Virus record (IMG/VR): IMGVR_UViG_3300031998_000045
Span: 22,751-86,750 of that record
DNA: 64,000 bases
From: a virus
Taxonomy: Duplodnaviria > Caudoviricetes
Reading direction: 5' to 3' (one strand)
The notes under the pieces are model-generated. The model worked only from the letters and a program-made list of their open reading frames with translations, was not told the origin of the DNA and searched no databases. This document shows, piece after piece, positions 4,318 to 22,831 of this stretch; position 1 is the stretch's first letter; each line of letters opens with the position of its first letter. Position numbers and translations under genes: made by a program.

Positions 4318-4371
4318 AAGACACGTGTGTTTGGTGATTTTCAAGATCAATAAGTCTGCTGCAAGTGTCTT
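4318..4371 (-). ncRNA. Stem/CAGCA RNA copy E1 with Ser(UGA)-like anticodon loop
   Basis: AAGACAC-TTGCAGCAG...TGAT-CTTGAAA-ATCA...GTGTCTT. Confidence 0.7.
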
Positions 4372-4696: not shown

Positions 4697-4746
4697 AAGA
4701 CTCATTTTGTTTCATTCCGTAAATGATAGTCTGCTGCATGAGTCTT
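4697..4746 (-). ncRNA. Stem/CAGCA RNA copy E2 with Arg(ACG)-like anticodon loop
   Basis: AAGACTCAT-GCAGCAG...TCAT-TTACGGA-ATGA...ATGAGTCTT. Confidence 0.7.
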
Positions 4747-5794
4747 AAAATGATGTAAATTCAAATTCTTCATAAAACTATTTATTTTTGTTCAACTATA
4801 CAAAATCATAAAAACGATTAAAATGTTTTTGAACATATATATCTTGCTTGCATGGTTTTGGAGACAACTAATCTTTAATAATATATAATGACCAGCCAGC
4901 TTTTAGTATCTCATTTCGTTTTATATTATCCCTATTCTAAATAGCTTTCAATGATGATCGTCTATCATTTGATATCTATTTATAATGCCATGGACCATTC
5001 CATTGTATAGCAATTTTTTCATCTACTATTAAAACATCCACATCCCATCCATTAAAAATAGGACTATTATGCTCAACATGTTTAAATGATGATTTGCATA
5101 AGTTATAAAATTTTATTTCACATTTTGATCGTCTTTGTTCATTCTATTTTGCAATTGATCGTCTTCCAGCCAAAGAAAGCTTCTATTTAGTTTCCTATGA
5201 CATAAATTCATTTCGATGTGTTTTTACATACTATTTGCATTCAAATGAGCAACAACTGCTTTTATCAACATCTAAAAACCATTTTTTACATTTTATACAT
5301 TGTTTAAATCTATAGACTTTATTCTAAGAACGAGCATTCATATGACTTTTTATTTTAACAACAATATATTTTTTATTAGTTGTTTGTTGTTTTTTAATTG
5401 TTTGTTGTTTTTTAAGTAACTATGGTTTATGTGAACGTCCTAATCCATTTGCGCAACTTCTTGAACAAAATCGTCTTATATATTTTTTACCTTTTAAAAC
5501 TTTTTCATATTCATAATCTGTCAAATCTAACTGATACGGCTTTTTACAAATAGGATTTTCACATATAAATGTACGTGGTTTTCGTGTTAATTCACGCTAT
5601 ATTTTTTCATGAGTAAGCTTTTCAGCATGTTTTCGATTCATTATTAAAGAACCGCGTTTCTATGCTGCAATATTTGCTTCTCTTTTAGGATTGCATTTAC
5701 ATGTTCTCATATGCGCAGTTGCAATTCCTGCCATTCGAAATGAACCATCGGTTTCAAATTCTTTTCCACAATATTTACAATGTATTATTTTCAT
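4745..5794 (-). CDS. Zn-finger + PD-(D/E)XK-type (DUF559/Vsr-like) putative homing endonuclease, 349 aa, code 15 only
   Basis: Absent from ORF track. 1050-nt frame from ATG 5794 to TAA 4745 with about 13 in-frame TAG and no TAA/TGA; N-terminal CKYCGKEF; C-terminal GWDVDVLIVDEKIAIQWNGPWHY; AT-rich; GTAAATA upstream. Confidence 0.8.
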
Positions 5795-5939: not shown

Positions 5940-5998
5940 AAGACGCGTGTTGGGTTTAAGATTAACTGTCTTATCCAAGCAGCTGCTGTGTGCGTCTT
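5940..5998 (-). ncRNA. Stem/CAGCA RNA copy E3 with Asn(GUU)-like anticodon loop
   Basis: AAGACGC-ACACAGCAG...TAAGA-CAGTTAA-TCTTA...GCGTCTT. Confidence 0.7.
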
Positions 5999-6795: not shown

Positions 6796-6800
6796 ATGAA

Positions 6801-7162
6801 TGGACGTGGGGAGAGTCGAACTCCCGTCTTGCTCAGTCTTTCATGCACCTTGTTCACATGCTTATGCTCTGCTTAGTTTCTCTCTGCTGCAGCAAGAGCA
6901 ATGACTCGCAGGAGATCTTGTGGAAATGACTGACCTCAAGCGCTTCCACATCTTGAGGACGTTCCGCCAAGTGATGATGCAGCTTCCGGTACCAGCGGAC
7001 GGTCTCCCAGAGCTGCAGGTTGTCTTACAGATCGCTTAGATCAAGCAGCCATAGCGTAGTCATACTCGCCATTTAGTTGTTTGCTTGGTTTTGAAGTGGA
7101 CTAAGCTCCACTGCATGCATAGACACACAATTGATTCTGCCAATCGATACCGTGTCACGCCC
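6801..7162 (-). ncRNA. ssrA: Phage-encoded tmRNA
   Basis: 5' GGGCGTG pairs with 3' CACGTCC-A (G3.U70), T arm GGGAGTTCGACTCTCC, 362 nt, internal tag frame ...GGC GAG TAT GAC TAC GCT ATG GCT GCT TGA (GEYDYAMAA). Confidence 0.9.
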
Positions 7163-7172
7163 TTGAAGTTGA

Positions 7173-7247
7173 TGGCGTCTCCAAGTGGAGTTGAACCACT
7201 CTTGCAAGTATGAAAAACTTGAGTCCTAGCCGATAGACGATGGAGAC
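7173..7247 (-). tRNA. tRNA-Glu(UUC)
   Basis: Cloverleaf GTCTCCA/TGGAGAC, loop TTTTCAT, CCA end. Confidence 0.9.
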
Positions 7248-7261
7248 ATCTTGAAATTGTC

Positions 7262-7337
7262 TGGTCACGGTGACAAGACTTGCACTTGCATGCCACTGCT
7301 TAAAAGGCAGTTGCTAACCTATTTTAGCTACACCGTG
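7262..7337 (-). tRNA. tRNA-Lys(UUU)
   Basis: CACGGTG/CACCGTG, loop CTTTTAA, T loop TGCAAGT, CCA end. Confidence 0.9.
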
Positions 7338-7341
7338 AAAT

Positions 7342-7418
7342 TGGTACCAGTGATGGGATTCGAACCCATACTGAAGTGATTTTGAGTCACGTGCCTCCTG
7401 CCTTTGGGCTACACTGGC
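7342..7418 (-). tRNA. tRNA-Leu(CAA), short variable arm
   Basis: GCCAGTG/CACTGGT, loop CTCAAAA, TTCGAAT, CCA end. Confidence 0.85.
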
Positions 7419-7424
7419 ATTGAC

Positions 7425-7484
7425 AAGACGCGTTTAGCTTGTATTCATTATCAGTGAATTGCTTTAGATTGCTGTGTGCGTCTT
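7425..7484 (-). ncRNA. Stem/CAGCA RNA copy E4 with Ile(GAU) anticodon loop
   Basis: AAGACGC-ACACAGCAA...ATTCA-CTGATAA-TGAAT...GCGTCTT; the loop is the canonical Ile loop. Confidence 0.75.
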
Positions 7485-7494
7485 CAAGAAGAAA

Positions 7495-7569
7495 TGGAGC
7501 CCGCAGAGAATTCCGAGATCTCAACCTGCTGCTTACAAGGCAGCCGCTCTGCCGTTGAGCTATACGGGC
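7495..7569 (-). tRNA. tRNA-Thr(UGU), atypical T loop
   Basis: GCCCGTA/TGCGGGC, loop CTTGTAA, T arm GAGA-TCTCGGAAT-TCTC, CCA end. Confidence 0.8.
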
Positions 7570-7584
7570 GCTTCATTTGAAAAT

Positions 7585-7673
7585 CGGAGAGAGGAAGATT
7601 CGAACTTCCGGGCCACATAGCTGCAGCCAACTCCTTAGCAAGGAGCCTCTTTAGACCGCTCAGACATCTCTCC
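7585..7673 (-). tRNA. tRNA-Ser(GCU)
   Basis: GGAGAGA/TCTCTCC, loop TTGCTAA, long variable arm, G73. Confidence 0.9.
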
Positions 7674-7679
7674 AAGAAC

Positions 7680-7768
7680 TGGCGGATGCGAGAAGATTCG
7701 AACTTCTGTGCCCTTTCAGGCAAACGGTGTTCAAGACCGCCCCGTTATGACCTCTTCGGTACGCATCC
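7680..7768 (-). tRNA. tRNA-Ser(UGA)
   Basis: GGATGCG/CGCATCC, loop CTTGAAC, long variable arm, GCCA end. Confidence 0.9.
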
Positions 7769-7779
7769 AGTCAAAAGAC

Positions 7780-7901
7780 TTGAAGCTAGGGATCCTCAGC
7801 GTATAGGCATGCCCGACGGGGATAACCGAGCTACGGCTACAAAGATTCCCTCCATGCTGTGGAGAACCCGTGCTGCTACCATGTTCAGCTGCTAGCTTCA
7901 A
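7780..7901 (-). ncRNA. Candidate structured RNA displaying CAGCA in loops
   Basis: 10-bp closing stem TTGAAGCTAG/CTAGCTTCAA; internal GCTG-AACATGGTAG-CAGC and CTCC-ACAGCAT-GGAG hairpins. Confidence 0.5.
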
Positions 7902-7909
7902 AAATAGAC

Positions 7910-7973
7910 AAGACTCATTGTGCTTGTTCTCCGAATATGGTGGGGAATAAGCTGATGCTGCTGTTTGAGTCTT
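7910..7973 (-). ncRNA. Stem/CAGCA RNA copy E5 (anticodon-like loop ambiguous, possibly CAU)
   Basis: AAGACTCA-AACAGCAG...GCTT..TTCCCC-ACCATAT-TCGGAGAA..AAGC...TGAGTCTT. Confidence 0.65.
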
Positions 7974-7997
7974 AAAATATCAAAATGGGCAATTGAC

Positions 7998-8957
7998 TTA
8001 AATTCGTTTTTCAAAAATTTTCTCAAGCTATCTGACAACATTATTTTTAGGACGAATTCGTATTGTCATATAACCGTGCTTTAATGCAATTTCGTCTTTT
8101 TGTTTATCTCTACTATTTCCTTCAGAATGCCAGTATTCACCGTCAATTTCAATAAATAATTTCTCTGAAGGAATATAAAAATCAACAAATCGTTTCATTT
8201 CATTAAAGCAAAATTCTTTTTGATGCTCAAATATGATTTTATGCTCAGTCAACCAATCAAATGCAACCTGTTCAGGATATGTCATTTTCTTTTTATTGCC
8301 AGCAAGTTTCCTGTTTGGATGTTTTTCTGGATGATCATGATACAGCTATTTCTTCTTTTCAGATACTTCTTTACGTTTCTCTATTGTCCAATATTTTGAA
8401 CAACATCTATTGACAATAGTACCATTAGCTATTTTAGTTTTCATTGTTTTTGAAACAGAAAGAGCATTTCTCATAATACGTTCATCTGTTTCTTTCGTCA
8501 AGCCTTTGTTCCAAGAAGTTCTTTTTTGAATCGGATGAATCTAATGATTATGCTCAAACAACTAAGCTCTAGTTTCAAATATCAAGTTGCATTGTTTACA
8601 TTGCCATGTTCCTCTTGGAGCTCTAGCTTTAAGATGTTGTTCATGAATATTCATCTATTTTCTAGATCTTCTTTTTTTGCTTATCTCAGCAAAGTCATTC
8701 TACTAAGCAGAATAAGATCTTCTACATGAATCAGAGCAAAATCTTCCAGTTCCATAGCTTCCATCATGTTCTTTGTTGCATTTAGGATTTTCACATTTGA
8801 ACATTCCATTTGGAAGTCTTCTAGCTTCTTTCTTCAAAAGATCATCTTTTTGCTTTTTTGACTTATATTGCTTATAACTTTTGCAAGTTCTTTTATGACC
8901 CTAAAGAGAACGGCCATTGTCAAATTCTTTTCCACATGTACATTTATAAATTTTCAT
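7998..8957 (-). CDS. Zn-finger/NUMOD-like + DUF559-type putative homing endonuclease, 319 aa, code 15 only
   Basis: Extends track ORF 8028-8285. 960-nt frame with 8 TAG; C2H2-like WQCKQCNLIFETRA*LFEHNH*IH, WNKGLTKETD motif, FVDFYIPSEKLFIEIDGEYWH nuclease. Confidence 0.85.
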
Positions 8958-8998
8958 ATTCTTATTTACTCAAGTGCATTACCAAACTCATCTAAAAT

Positions 8999-9077
8999 TG
9001 GTCAGGGCGAGCCGTGCTGCCCGGCTACCTATGGGACCCAAACCCATCGTGCAGAAATGCTGCTATACCACGCCCTG
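8999..9077 (-). ncRNA. tRNA-Pro(UGG)-derived RNA with rewritten D and T loops
   Basis: CAGGGCG/CGCCCTG-A-CCA acceptor, ATGGG-TTTGGGT-CCCAT anticodon arm, but D region GCAG-CATTT-CTGC and T loop GGCAGCA (no GG, no TTC). Confidence 0.7.
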
Positions 9078-9089
9078 TAAAATAAAAGC

Positions 9090-9202
9090 AAGACACATTT
9101 TTACGTGCTCTACCAGCTGAGCTACGAGATCTAAGATCTCGGCAAGATTCGAACTTGCGACCCCGAGCTTACCAGGCTTGAAAATACTGCTGTGTGTGTC
9201 TT
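9090..9202 (-). ncRNA. Stem/CAGCA RNA copy E6 enclosing a circularly permuted tRNA-Thr(GGU)
   Basis: AAGACAC-ACACAGCAG-...CAAGC-CTGGTAA-GCTCG-GGGTC-GCAAG-TTCGAAT-CTTGC-CGAGATC-TTA-GATCTCG-TA-GCTC-AGCTGGTA-GAGC-A...GTGTCTT. Confidence 0.8.
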
Positions 9203-9210
9203 GAAGAATC

Positions 9211-9300
9211 TTTGACTGCTGAAACCGCTCACTCATAAGTTTTCCGAGCCTCCTGTTAAGTAAGGCTCAGGTTGGATTCGAACCAATAGCAGCAGTCAAA
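9211..9300 (-). ncRNA. Second permuted tRNA-like (YrlA-like topology) RNA
   Basis: Closing stem TTTGACTGCTG/CAGCAGTCAAA around T arm TTGG-TTCGAAT-CCAA, closed hairpin CTGAGCCT/AGGCTCGG and D-like GAGTGAGCGGTTT. Confidence 0.55.
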
Positions 9301-9319
9301 AAATGAACAATGAAAATAA

Positions 9320-9404
9320 TGGTGGACCCGAAGAGAATCGAACTCTCACGCGAAACCGCACTGCTTGCAAAGCAGCTCCAATCACCACACTCTGACACGG
9401 GCCC
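9320..9404 (-). tRNA. tRNA-Ala(UGC) with long variable arm
   Basis: GGGCCCG/CGGGTCC gives G3.U70, loop TTTGCAA, extra arm GCGGTTTCGCG, TTCGATT, ACCA end. Confidence 0.75.
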
Positions 9405-9420
9405 ATAAAGCCAATAAAAC

Positions 9421-9467
9421 TAGATGCCAATTTTATTCTACAGATACAAACCTGCTGTAAGCATCTA
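9421..9467 (-). ncRNA. Stem/CAGCA RNA copy E7 with Tyr(GUA)-like anticodon loop
   Basis: TAGATGC-TTACAGCAG-GTTTG-TAT-CTGTAGA-ATA-AAATTG-GCATCTA. Confidence 0.65.
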
Positions 9468-9593
9468 AAAAAAGAAACTGTCAATTGTCAAAGATCAAAC
9501 ATTTATTTACATCGTGTGAGTCAAATCCCAAGCAACGGTCTTCATTCCCTTAAACATGTATACATTATACCACATTAAAGTGAATTCTTAAAC

Positions 9594-13190: not shown

Positions 13191-13659
13191 TGCTCTCTCC
13201 GGTCTGGATTCCATCACCCTCTACAGCAGACTTCAAGACAGACATCACATTGTCAACCATTGACAGAGACTTTCTGTTGCAACGCAGCAAGTAGAATCCA
13301 GCGTAAGATGACAGAGCATAGCTCATGACAATGAACACATTTGCTATGTCAGTCCAGCCATAGTGCTGAAGAGCTATGTATATGCCGAACACGAACAAGA
13401 TGTCTATGACACATGCACATATCATCATCACATCAAACTTGCGGCCATACTCTTCAATAGCTTTGTCAGTTCCAATCTTGTCTGGGTCATGCTCATCAGC
13501 ACGCTGTCTGGCAAGCTCTGCAACGTCATCATAGACACTGTCAGTCGTGTCATTCATCTTGGCAAACTCAAGGAGAGCTTTGCCCATCAGGTCGGCCAAC
13601 GCTCCGAGGAACGTCAGCCAGACCGAAGCTTTCACTAAGAAAGCTTGTATCATACGCAC
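13135..13659 (-). CDS. Putative membrane protein
   Basis: Two to three hydrophobic segments. Confidence 0.6.
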   Translation of the reverse strand: MRMIQAFLVKASVWLTFLGALADLMGKALLEFAKMNDTTDSVYDDVAELARQRADEHDPDKIGTDKAIEEYGRKFDVMMICACVIDILFVFGIYIALQHYGWTDIANVFIVMSYALSSYAGFYLLRCNRKSLSMVDNVMSVLKSAVEGDGIQTGESNEEAESSEDPEDKSKKEE

Positions 13660-15209
13660 TCCTGAAATGCAGCTTCTACCGGCGCATAGCGCTCAGAAGA
13701 GAGCTGGTCAACCAGCGCTTCAAACGGGTCGAGCTTGCTGGACAGAGCCATCTTCAAGACTGAAGGCGAGAAGCCAGACACAAGTGTGCATCCGTTCTCC
13801 ATCTGCTGGACAGGGATGACCGTCCTAGAGTTTGCGCTGATGTTCCACCACGCCATCTTCGGCACAATGTATCCAGCGTTCTTGTACATCTCGGCAATCT
13901 CCCGCATCAGAGTCTTGTCTTCTCCCCAGTCAGTCGTGCCTTGGTCAAAGTGCATGTCACTGAGGATGAGGATTGTCGAAGGCAAGTCTTCCTGCTTGAG
14001 GTTGTTGTTCACAGCCGAGTCGAGGATGAGCTTCATCGTCTTGCGCAAGTCTGTGTTGGCACATTCAGCTTCTGCGTAAGAGAGAGCAAGCTTGTCAGCA
14101 AGAGTCTTGCAGTTGCTCATGTCAATGTACTTCGGCTTGTTGCTGAAGCTGATGTACTTGTCCTTGTACGGTCCAGAGAGCTTCTCACTGGTGTAGATGC
14201 CGAGAGAGAATGCAACATCAATTGCCTGCATTCCGCCTCCACCGACTCCAACTGTCATCGAGCCAGAAGAGTCTACGACGCAGAGCGTCTTCCCAGTGTC
14301 AGAGGATGCATAGTCAGGAAGCGCCTTCCACATCTCCTCAAGGGCTGTGTCAGCCTTGATGTGCAGAGTCCTCCAGTCAAAGTAGTTCTGCTTTGCCGTC
14401 GTCATGTAGCTGTGGACGATGTCGCAGGGGAAAGCTGTTGAAGAGTTTATCTTCACTCCCTCATCCCCGCGGGCCAGAGACTCAAGCCATGCCTGGCGAC
14501 GGGCAGCATCATGCTTTGTGAATGCATTCTTGTACTTGATGTTGGCGAGACTCGGCACAGCATTGTAGTCTACTTCACTCCACTTGTTTGCAGAGATTCC
14601 GACTTCAACTACCTTAGATGCTGCACGCAGCTTTGACAGAGTCTTGCGGTACTGACGCTCAGTCATGCCGAGGTCAGCTGCAATTGTGCGTCCAAGAGCT
14701 TTTGTCTTCGGCGAGCTTGTGCAGACAGAGGGAAGCCACTTCGCAAGAAGCGAGACAGACTTGCCAGCATCTGCAGCTTCAAGGTCAGCTGTCAGCTGAG
14801 CTGCAATGATGTCAAGAGCTTTCTTCCAGAGGTCTCTCTTGAGCTCGGACATCCAGAGATCATCCCAGCGCCCATACTCAGGTGCCAGCTTGAGAAGCTT
14901 CTCAGCGAGCTCTGGCTTCTGACCTGCAAGCCAAGAGAAGCAGATGCGGAAGAGACGCCGCTCTCCCATTCCACCTCTCACGTCACGAGAGAAGAAGAGC
15001 CACTTCACTGCCAGAAGCGGGTCTTCAAAGTATGCTTCTGCAAACTTCTTCTCAATGGTGGTCTCATCTGCCTGCCTCAAGCTTGAGACAGAGAAATTGA
15101 TGTCAAGCAGCGCTTTGCCAGTTGTGGCATGCATCACTGCTCCATTGTCAGACAGAGTCTTCTCATTCTTGAGCTCTGACTTCAATGCTTCTTCGAACTT
15201 GTCATTCAT
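13650..15209 (-). CDS. DUF2828-family TROVE/Ro60-like protein with C-terminal vWA domain (519 aa)
   Basis: RDVRGGMGERRLFR, EYGRWDDLW, AKWLPS, YRKTLSKLR, then vWA MIDAS VVDSSGSM, ILILSDMHFD; start MNDKF after GAAAAGGAA. Confidence 0.85.
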   Translation of the reverse strand: MNDKFEEALKSELKNEKTLSDNGAVMHATTGKALLDINFSVSSLRQADETTIEKKFAEAYFEDPLLAVKWLFFSRDVRGGMGERRLFRICFSWLAGQKPELAEKLLKLAPEYGRWDDLWMSELKRDLWKKALDIIAAQLTADLEAADAGKSVSLLAKWLPSVCTSSPKTKALGRTIAADLGMTERQYRKTLSKLRAASKVVEVGISANKWSEVDYNAVPSLANIKYKNAFTKHDAARRQAWLESLARGDEGVKINSSTAFPCDIVHSYMTTAKQNYFDWRTLHIKADTALEEMWKALPDYASSDTGKTLCVVDSSGSMTVGVGGGGMQAIDVAFSLGIYTSEKLSGPYKDKYISFSNKPKYIDMSNCKTLADKLALSYAEAECANTDLRKTMKLILDSAVNNNLKQEDLPSTILILSDMHFDQGTTDWGEDKTLMREIAEMYKNAGYIVPKMAWWNISANSRTVIPVQQMENGCTLVSGFSPSVLKMALSSKLDPFEALVDQLSSERYAPVEAAFQECV

Positions 15210-15228
15210 CTGCTGTTCCTTTTCTCTT

Positions 15229-15525
15229 TCAGTTGTTGTCCAAAAAGGCTTGTGCTTCTCTCTACTCTTCAATTGGAAGATAGATCTGGCAGCTGTGCAC
15301 TTCAGCGCCAAACTTGTTTGTCAAGATGTTGCAGCAGAAAGTCTCTATTGCATCTTCCACTGTAGTCTTCTTGCTCTTCTTTGCTCCCTCAATGACACCG
15401 TCTGGAATGTTCAATGTCATCTCTTCAGGAAGATTGTAGATCTTTGTCTTCCCTTTTGGATTGCTCCACTTTATGTTGCACACAGTCACCTGCATGCTGT
15501 CCGTCTCATTGTCTATGTTCTGCAT
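15229..15525 (-). CDS. Hypothetical protein
   Basis: Track ORF; TAG at 15262 read through to TGA 15229. Confidence 0.6.
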
Positions 15526-15646
15526 TGTATGCTTTGTTAGAACTGCTTAGAGAATTCAAGCAATGCTCATGCATTCGCCTGCTGCTGAGTCTAAGCTTCT
15601 CAGCTAGATTATATTATATCACATTTTCAGATAGCATAAACATCTG

Positions 15647-16276
15647 TCAATGCATTGTCTTTGGACGTAAGAAGAACAGCTTTCCGCTAGCATCTCTCTT
15701 GCATCTGAGAAGCTTCTTTGGATTTGTCCTGAACAATGCATCTAGATATCTCATCAGCTCATCATCAGAGACAATCTTGAATCCCCACTTCATGCAGCCG
15801 ACATTCACATTCATTATGCCATGGTCTAAGTCTAAGCAATGCTTCCATGCATTATGCACATGCCCACATATGACTATTGGCGAAGCAAGACAGCATTTGT
15901 CTATGCGGATGTCATAAGACGGATAGTGAGACAGAGAGACTGATGGATACTTCTTGCTCAGAAACAGATGCATTGAGTCACATATAGACTTCACTTTGTT
16001 GTGTATGTCATGATTGCCTCTGATGTTCAAGAAGGTCGCGGACAAGTCCTTGACAAACTGGTCAGGTTTTTCACTAAGACCTTCATGTCCACGGTCATTG
16101 CCAAACTGTCCAAGATCTCCAAGATGGTATATCACATCGTCTTCTCTGGCCCACTCTCTGCAAGACCTGATGAGGGCTGCATCATGAGACTCTATAGACT
16201 TGAAAGGCCACTTCTCAAGGGACAGCAAGAGCTTAGATCCCAGATGGAAGTCGGATGTGAAGAATCGTCTGGCCAT
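15647..16276 (-). CDS. Calcineurin-like metallophosphoesterase
   Basis: TSDFHLG, HLGD, RGNHD, LSHYP, GHVH motifs. Confidence 0.9.
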   Translation of the reverse strand: MARRFFTSDFHLGSKLLLSLEKWPFKSIESHDAALIRSCREWAREDDVIYHLGDLGQFGNDRGHEGLSEKPDQFVKDLSATFLNIRGNHDIHNKVKSICDSMHLFLSKKYPSVSLSHYPSYDIRIDKCCLASPIVICGHVHNAWKHCLDLDHGIMNVNVGCMKWGFKIVSDDELMRYLDALFRTNPKKLLRCKRDASGKLFFLRPKTMH

Positions 16277-22654: not shown

Positions 22655-22831
22655 TCAATGGTCAGACAAGACACGTCTTTCTGCAAAGTCTTCAGCCTCA
22701 TCTTTAGACGGAAATGAAGCTATGACTTTAGATCCATAATACCGCATGTCAAGCACATTCCACTCATCGCGGCCGCGCACTTTGCGCACTTTTATTGACT
22801 TTCTGTTGTCTATGAGCTCTCGGTAAGTCAT
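22655..22831 (-). CDS. Small hypothetical protein (58 aa)
   Basis: Below cutoff; AAAGGAGG RBS and promoter box. Confidence 0.6.
   Translation of the reverse strand: MTYRELIDNRKSIKVRKVRGRDEWNVLDMRYYGSKVIASFPSKDEAEDFAERRVLSDH

Follow-up and report, generated by a model that had tools for sequence, protein, structure and literature searches.

Bacterial and phage Ro60 proteins bind Y RNAs that are encoded beside them (PMC4201824, PMC12135203), and the bacterial Y RNAs of the YrlA type are the closest described counterparts of the RNA considered here. The two ends of a YrlA RNA pair into a protein-binding stem, on which follow a T arm, an acceptor helix closed by a loop, and a D arm, with the nucleotides of the tRNA tertiary pairs kept; the gene lies near that of a Ro60-fold protein, and a second small RNA is often encoded in tandem with it. 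YrlA RNAs are also characterized by tRNA-type modifications and as substrates of RNase P, TruB, and DusA. The Rsr/Ro60-binding motif, GNCGAAN0-1G, sits near the YrlA 5' end (PMC4201824), and YrlA from S. Typhimurium is without an anticodon loop (Wang et al. 2018, bioRxiv 10.1101/312249). Among phages, the Thermus phage phiLo encodes phiRo60 with Yrl1 and Yrl2 upstream (PMC12135203). Here we describe an RNA of this topology, termed E6, on the minus strand at 9203-9089 of a 64,000-nucleotide stretch of a rumen phage of the Caudoviricetes (hereafter the window; positions 22,751 to 86,750 of the IMG/VR record IMGVR_UViG_3300031998_000045). E6 consists of a complete, circularly permuted tRNA-Thr(GGU) body on a handle, and it is probably a Y-RNA-like mimic of a tRNA, not chargeable and docked to a Ro60-like protein.

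Read along the minus strand, E6 opens with the handle's 5' strand (CAAGACACA, 9203-9195), which forms nine Watson-Crick pairs with the 3' strand at the other end of the RNA (UGUGUCUUG, 9097-9089). Next come the unpaired motif ACAGCAG (9193-9187), which matches the consensus (A/G)CAGCA(A/G), and a linker (9186-9179) that leads to the anticodon stem-loop (9178-9164), composed of the cis pairs AGC/GCU, the loop CUGGUAA with U33, the anticodon GGU and A37, and finally C42-G43. The variable loop GGGUC (9163-9159), in which G46 and C48 are positioned as in a class I tRNA, is followed by the T arm GCAAG-UUCGAAU-CUUGC (9158-9142) and the acceptor hairpin CGAGAUC-UUA-GAUCUCG (9141-9125), whose 3' strand (9141-9135) precedes its 5' strand (9131-9125) across a three-nucleotide loop (9134-9132). 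U8-A9 (UA, 9124-9123), the D arm GCUC-AGCUGGUA-GAGC (9122-9107), A26 (9106), C27 and G28 (9105-9104), and an A-rich linker, UAAAAA (9103-9098), complete the RNA. E6 thus has all the parts by which we define the handle, namely a helix, then the unpaired (A/G)CAGCA(A/G) motif, and the A-rich linker opposite.

The initial annotation had described this locus as a complete permuted tRNA-Thr(GGU) on a CAGCA scaffold, and every element it listed is present on the minus strand. Its location was correct too, while its limits, 9090-9202, are one base pair too narrow. It had further drawn the anticodon arm as a cis stem, CAAGC/GCUCG; the arm is there, but such a stem contains an A.C mismatch, and a perfect stem of five base pairs is formed instead by the three cis pairs (AGC/GCU) together with two pairs between C42-G43 and their trans partners in the 3' tail, C27 and G28. 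The handle branches off the anticodon stem between positions 28 and 29.

Within E6, the 3' half of the tRNA precedes the 5' half, which is the order of a permuted gene. In this native order there is no contiguous open-ended cloverleaf, and neither ARAGORN nor the Rfam tRNA model (RF00005) makes a call. When 9131-9104 is joined to 9178-9135, ARAGORN calls tRNA-Thr(ggt) with a perfect cloverleaf, including all four arms and the conserved nucleotides; joining at 28/29 also brings together the nucleotides of the tertiary pairs (U8-A14, G15-C48, G18G19, and T54-C56). Since the rejoined order gives a perfect call and the native order none, the observation is right and far beyond chance. The minimum-free-energy fold recovers the handle, T, acceptor, and D helices, with a z score of only -2.2. 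Because the acceptor is sealed by the UUA loop, neither a discriminator base nor a CCA end is free.

The YrlA-type layout that the initial annotation proposed is borne out by Rfam, whose YrlA model (RF02553) matches 9165-9104 with 41.5 bits over model positions 24-84 of 114 (E 6e-7 to 7e-8). Both the T and the D arm, the closed acceptor between them, and the two closing pairs fall within this match, which leaves the Ro60-binding ends of the model unmatched. The order of modules in E6 is the YrlA order throughout, from T arm through loop-closed acceptor and D arm to a stem made of both RNA ends, and the TROVE-linked bacterial and phage copies examined even carry an anticodon-like hairpin at the position of the E6 anticodon arm. 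Other features set E6 apart. Its terminal stem bears ACAGCAG and not the Ro60/Rsr motif GNCGAA; the nearby protein belongs to DUF2828/DUF7788 and not to Pfam TROVE; and its extra hairpin is a canonical anticodon arm stacked on two trans pairs, so that the whole re-permutes to a perfect tRNA. Weak Rfam matches over the E6 region to mir-7918, SMAD5-AS1, and permuted tmRNA were set aside as chance matches or matches to parts of a tRNA.

Two other systems invite comparison. As in phiLo, a phage Ro60-fold protein is accompanied by partner RNA genes just upstream, each with a stem and an unpaired purine-rich motif, although the phiLo RNAs carry a CGAA motif and no tRNA body, and the phiLo protein is a recognizable TROVE protein. 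Class I RNAs of dictyostelid amoebae have a short terminal stem joining the ends, a conserved unpaired motif of 11 nucleotides after the 5' strand, and a variable interior; positions 3, 6, 9, 10, and 11 of the motif are fixed as T, C, C, A, and A (PMC7919456). As a lead only, the pattern would fit NNUNNCNNCAA, as in UUACAGCAA. The reported binder of Class I RNAs differs, being the RRM protein Rnp1A (PMC7919456), and Rfam scans of the E6 region returned no Class I RNA match.

The permuted order is not an assembly artefact, since an independently assembled relative has the same order: in another study, two runs yielded contigs, X3 (at a depth of 16.8) and X5, that cover 8995-9209 at about 97% identity. 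Relative to E6, this RNA differs in loops only, with UCA in place of UUA as the closing loop and a D loop shorter by one base. Beyond the shared segment, the 258 bases at 9210-9467 are replaced in the relative by 221 other letters, and the RNA cluster is therefore modular. Among the replaced sequences is Y2 (9211-9300, minus), a tRNA-like element directly upstream of E6 with a T arm, a closed hairpin, and a terminal stem of 11 base pairs, to which neither the Rfam YrlA model nor an E6-based model matches. Its CAGCAG is base-paired inside a stem, and Y2 was left uncounted as a handle RNA.

A stem with (A/G)CAGCA(A/G) marks at least nine RNAs of the contig, which are E6, seven others, and one upstream of a DUF2828 gene. 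The stem itself, AAGAC.../...GUCUUG, has eight copies in the contig, and its inner pairs covary. Seven to eight sisters of E6 have the handle and no tRNA body at all, most of them with a lone anticodon-like hairpin as cargo, in whose loops U33 and purine 37 are kept and the anticodons are diverse. Six sisters lie in the tRNA cluster on the minus strand (4318-4371, 4697-4746, 5940-5998, 7425-7484, 7910-7973, and 9421-9467), and contig position 20043-20098, upstream of the window, has a further one. The handle RNA by the DUF2828 gene, E8 (GCUUAGA-CU-CAGCAG...UCUAAGC; 15596-15545, minus), is located between a promoter-like site and that gene. An exact scaffold pattern (TAAGACNC..CAGCAG..GUCUUG) run over IMG/VR gave 28 single matches, none with a pairing stem, and these were regarded as chance.

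The DUF2828/DUF7788 gene (Pfam; 13650-15209, minus) encodes the proposed partner of E6. Its open reading frame (ORF) under translation table 11 extends to 15311, and relatives as well as an Atlas record start at the ATG at 15209. The region upstream of it (15209-15660, minus) contains, in order, a promoter-like TTGACA/TATAAT, E8, and a small ORF. ACAGCAG directly adjoins the ATG (GGAACAGCAGAUG), which suggests that the DUF2828 protein may bind its own messenger.

To relate handle and protein, DUF2828 loci were collected from IMG/VR by the protein alone. A search with the single window protein found no match, and an alignment of three DUF2828 proteins was needed; it found about 540 loci, of which 80 were fetched, with homologues 33-49% identical. 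In the 1.5 kb upstream of DUF2828 at these 80 unrelated phage loci, stem-adjacent RCAGCAR occurs at 1.58/kb on the strand of the gene, compared with 0.056/kb on the opposite strand and 0.01-0.09/kb for five control heptamers, an enrichment of about 28-fold. Of 79 loci, 63 have at least one such motif upstream (the median is two), and the matches of a covariance model of E6-like elements are almost confined to the same strand and the same upstream region. When 13 window proteins were used as queries against the 80 loci, nothing was shared beyond one weak match each for two of them. As essentially no other protein neighbour in the window is shared with these loci, the RNA-protein pair is the conserved unit. 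A census of anticodon-like hairpins among stem-plus-RCAGCAR segments (25% versus 12% of random segments) is contaminated by chance stems in coding DNA and was not used. With 8900-9500 as the query, blastn matched none of 50,697 phage records.

What kind of protein is DUF2828? The window protein matches DUF2828 and DUF7788 only, and not Pfam TROVE (PF05731); the literature searched contains incidental mentions of these domains and no functional description. Structure prediction was more informative. A first model from three sequences was mediocre, with a predicted local distance difference test (pLDDT) of 65, whereas the AlphaFold model from 51 sequences reached a pLDDT of 88 and a predicted template modelling score of 0.88. 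The 13 best Foldseek matches of this model in the PDB are all Ro60/TROVE proteins, aligned over the full length with template modelling scores of 0.40-0.59. VIA-align superimposes it on Xenopus Ro60 (1yvr) with Z 18.6 and a root-mean-square deviation of 4.1 A over 419 residues, and its ten top rows are all Ro60, followed by isolated vWA domains with Z of about 10. As modelled, the window protein is a full-length Ro60 fold, with a predicted ring of helical repeats and a C-terminal vWA domain with a metal-ion-dependent adhesion site, whose DxSxS motif is invariant in the 51 DUF2828 sequences. Sequence methods barely detect this relationship: a DUF2828 profile gave marginal vWA matches among PDB sequences, with Ro60 at E 0.7, and profile-profile comparison with phage TROVE proteins gave 72% probability over the vWA part only.

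The DUF2828 loci also contain 56 distinct tRNA-like genes of normal order, 102-142 nt long, which are cousins of E6. Their handle is an insert after position 28, composed of a linker, a hairpin, (A/G)C(A/U)GCA(A/G), and a second linker. A full anticodon arm is kept in 24 of the 56, and 20 of these 24 have exactly two pairs 5' of the insert, usually in the form N26-CG-UA as in E6. The order of strands round the junction is the same in cousins and in E6; the cousins have an open acceptor and a closed handle tip, and E6 has the reverse. One cousin, L177, even shares the anticodon GGU and an identical T stem with E6. In view of this common strand order and of L177, E6 is a circular permutation of the normal-order handle gene type, and the comparison suggests that it arose by permutation of such a gene. 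The initial annotation had gone further and taken E6 for the full-length source of the anticodon-only elements. The sequences do not establish this, as the direction of descent cannot be read from them, and the nearest relatives are the normal-order handle tRNA-like genes. The ends of the cousins resemble those of real tRNAs: among the 56, G1-C72 is found 49 times, discriminator A 32 times, and an encoded CCA 10 times.

Some of these handle RNAs deserve description in their own right. Two near-identical normal-order genes in two related phages, L169:9493-9616 and L172:9520-9643, differ essentially in the anticodon loop alone, which is CUGUUAA (anticodon GUU) in the former and CUUCUAA (anticodon UCU) in the latter. 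This swap, a single anecdote, is a hint that the triplet is under selection, which would be expected of a bait. A subclass of handle tRNA-like genes without an anticodon hairpin (L197:9569-9681, L186:8757-8869, L164:5825-5953, L044:4260-4360, and L221:11700-11790) has a conserved unpaired AAUGGGGAAC-like loop that is closed by four to five pairs with the 3' tail. In the array at L176:9100-10000, upstream of DUF2828, hairpin-cargo handle RNAs are followed by four normal-order tRNA-like genes, including Thr(UGU)-like and Pro(UGG)-like ones, a tRNA-operon layout that ends at the start codon of the protein.

Relatives with a closed acceptor were sought by an IMG/VR scan for a T loop followed by a YrlA-type D arm, with at least six acceptor pairs closed by a short loop. 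It returned 24 candidates, about 18 of which are genuine closed hairpins, the remainder being tandem tRNAs. About ten share the E6 junction, with a 7-nt loop, U33, purine 37, three cis pairs, and two to three pairs from the 3' tail; they score 31-58 bits on the YrlA model and frequently occur as tandem pairs. In an alignment of ten elements from unrelated viral contigs, 98.8% of the cells pair and compensatory changes occur at 11 of 17 pairs, counts that are biased upward because the rows were picked for showing the anticodon arm. The trans pairs 27-43 and 28-42 both vary among CG, GC, AU, and GU. The acceptors of the permuted relatives are closed by UUCG or UCCG tetraloops or by loops of 2-5 nt.

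Which protein accompanies a viral closed-acceptor element goes with the handle. Elements with the CAGCA handle are found in records with DUF2828 and without TROVE (four records, one weak match), whereas elements without CAGCA are found in records with TROVE and without DUF2828 (six records). The same hairpin is present in bacterial closed-acceptor elements, such as those from Streptomyces, Nocardiopsis, and Acetatifactor, and TROVE genes were found in four of the five such genomes tested. Since these bacterial elements carry one, the mere presence of a fourth hairpin is no novelty; to read it as a true anticodon arm, and the perfect tRNA of E6, exceed the cited descriptions of YrlA. Four of the TROVE-linked YrlA-type elements (L305, L307, L306, and L353, from Streptomyces, Nocardiopsis, and Clostridia) have the anticodon-like hairpin just 5' of the closing pairs, with a 7-nt loop, U33, purine 37, and often the anticodon GUU, and an upstream motif GUGCGMAGG...GGUUACUUC.

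In the reading that we favour, E6 would be a stable, Y-RNA-type small RNA that mimics the L shape of a tRNA and has the permuted YrlA topology. The handle, helix and unpaired ACAGCAG together, would be the docking site of the phage Ro60-like DUF2828/vWA protein, and the tRNA body with its Thr-type anticodon loop would be displayed on this ring protein. The displayed body may then bait tRNA-recognizing proteins or serve as their adaptor; modification enzymes, anticodon nucleases, and repair enzymes are examples. Both the expression of E6 and the role of the displayed tRNA shape are what we infer. A Y-RNA-like particle is favoured because E6 has the YrlA topology, the closing loops of permuted relatives are stable, sisters lack a tRNA body, and the linkage to a Ro60-fold gene is tight and exclusive. 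It is also favoured because ACAGCAG adjoins the DUF2828 start codon and because Ro60 proteins with adjacent Y RNAs have precedent. Of the two alternatives offered by the initial annotation, a non-chargeable mimic or a precursor in need of ligation and opening, the former fits best, given an acceptor sealed by a 3-nt loop and permuted relatives closed by tetraloops or 2-nt loops.

Several observations weigh against this reading. The YrlA score of E6 does not reach the gathering cut-off of 69 bits, although this cut-off is strict for phage members, since TROVE-linked phage copies with a closed acceptor score just 31-58 bits. The E6 leader lacks the Rsr/Ro60-binding motif GNCGAAN0-1G and carries ACAGCAG in its place. 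The window DUF2828 gene shares a strand with E6 and lies 4.4 kb off, not adjacent. The covariation counts are inflated by the choice of rows, as mentioned above. The tRNA-like ends of the cousins leave a translation-related role open. Finally, the grounds for supposing that the DUF2828 protein binds the handle are two, genetic linkage and predicted fold.

The proposed docking of E6 to a Ro60-like protein has to be weighed against explanations that do without it. E6 and its sisters might be free-standing anticodon-loop decoys for host anticodon nucleases or tRNA-modifying enzymes, the handle being merely a stabilizing or processing stem and the link to DUF2828 indirect. Cargo loops that keep U33 and purine 37 with many different anticodons would suit such decoys, as would the near-identity of L169 and L172 outside the anticodon (GUU versus UCU). 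However, the unpaired motif is conserved beside a stem of variable sequence across unrelated phages, and it is placed tightly beside one Ro60-fold family, as expected of a protein-binding site; the motif that adjoins the DUF2828 start codon points in the same direction. We consider free decoys unlikely.

E6 might also be a genuine precursor. Permuted tRNA genes, which encode the 3' portion of the tRNA ahead of its 5' portion, are known from the red alga Cyanidioschyzon merolae and from some other algae and archaea; in C. merolae the pre-tRNA is circularized and then opened by RNase P. The break in these genes is mostly in or near the anticodon loop or other loops, at a bulge-helix-bulge, and maturation depends on the eukaryal or archaeal splicing endonuclease and ligase. 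E6 resembles them in the order of its parts and in acceptor strands joined by a short spacer. It differs in that it breaks within the anticodon stem at 28/29, has a conserved, protein-linked handle, and comes from a bacteriophage. On this account, the handle would be excised by cuts after G28 and before A29, ligation would yield a circular tRNA, the UUA loop would be opened by RNase P together with a 3' nuclease, and CCA addition would give a working tRNA-Thr(GGU). The flawless cloverleaf produced by joining at 28/29, with its tertiary-pair nucleotides, is in line with such a pathway, as are the normal-order cousins with tRNA-like ends and sometimes an encoded CCA, and a phage that invests in translation through many tRNAs and apparent TAG recoding.

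Other features of E6 and its family speak for a mimic and not for a precursor. The closing loop has just 3 nt and no CCA, the acceptors of relatives are closed by stable tetraloops or 2-nt loops, and sisters with the same handle carry a hairpin alone and cannot yield tRNAs. Neither closing loops of this kind, tetraloops or 2-5 nt, nor body-less sisters fit a tRNA precursor. The splicing endonuclease is not known from bacteria. By inspection, with no formal search made, a bulge-helix-bulge was not seen at the junction; there is a possible A-U helix of 4 bp (UUUU/AAAA) with gaps of 1 and 2 nt on the tRNA side and a 10-nt bulge with ACAGCAG opposite, which differs from the 3-4-3 geometry. RtcB was not found in the fragment, which represents about 30% of the genome. 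Moreover, the YrlA RNAs that share this topology and are linked to TROVE are stable components of ribonucleoproteins, and not precursors (PMC4201824). A precursor is thus distinctly improbable.

A broader variant makes the handle a removable element throughout, so that E6 would be the first circularly permuted tRNA gene of a phage, matured via a circle to a working tRNA-Thr(GGU). The cousins would then count as phage tRNAs whose anticodon stem is interrupted by a protein-dependent intron, and splicing or chaperoning would fall to the Ro60-like protein; we regard this combination as very doubtful. Least likely of all is that E6 is an inert by-product left over from tandem duplication of a handle-bearing tRNA-like gene: duplication with loss of the ends is expected to give a circular permutation, and normal-order cousins exist, but every helix is perfect, the relative at about 97% identity changed loop bases alone, and permuted handle-bearing copies recur in at least ten unrelated viral records.

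The genomic setting of E6 can be described briefly. The window is part of a record of 86,750 bases, estimated to be about 30% complete, and DNA of this region is found in gut metagenomes of cattle, sheep, and goats and in no RNA run. Neither TROVE nor RtcB was detected in the contig, so the TROVE neighbour typical of YrlA is missing from these 86.7 kb; such negatives carry little weight, as the contig covers about 30% of the genome. Window genes are mostly on the minus strand, as are a tmRNA and at least eight tRNAs at 6798-9404. The phage tmRNA (6798-7162, minus; 95 bits), with the tag peptide GEYDYAMAA, stands at the end of the tRNA cluster. Two AT-rich, endonuclease-like ORFs (4745-5794 and 7998-8957, minus), with one DUF559 match, contain 13 and 8 in-frame TAG codons, respectively, and are open only if TAG is a sense codon. 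From these codons, the phage appears to recode TAG, and no tRNA with a CUA anticodon was seen in the window.

Unusual tRNA genes are another feature of the cluster. The gene at 8999-9077 (minus) resembles tRNA-Pro(UGG) and encodes CCA, but its T loop is GGCAGCA and its odd D region contains AGCAGCA; it was missed by every tRNA finder, and the independently assembled relative has it as well. A tRNA-Thr(UGU) whose T arm is unusual (7498-7569, minus) is called by Rfam and missed by ARAGORN, and an 85-nt tRNA-Ala(UGC) with a long extra arm (9320-9404, minus) is called by Rfam.

In the literature searched, we found nothing on CAGCA-handle RNAs, on handle-bearing or permuted phage tRNAs, or on the pairing of an E6-type RNA with a Ro60-shaped protein. 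As tRNA finders miss permuted and handle-inserted topologies, the annotation of tRNAs and non-coding RNAs in phages is incomplete in this respect. Conservation of Ro60 and its Y RNAs extends from bacteria to humans, and E6 is the clearest form of the tRNA mimicry of bacterial Y RNAs, a flawless tRNA, anticodon loop included, whose build would make charging impossible. Together with its normal-order and hairpin-only sisters, it points to a second branch of Ro60/Y-RNA particles, widespread in phages, that would display parts of tRNAs. An authentic anticodon arm as cargo makes three ideas testable, namely that such particles may serve as bait for anticodon nucleases, recruit tRNA enzymes, or take part in tRNA repair during infection.
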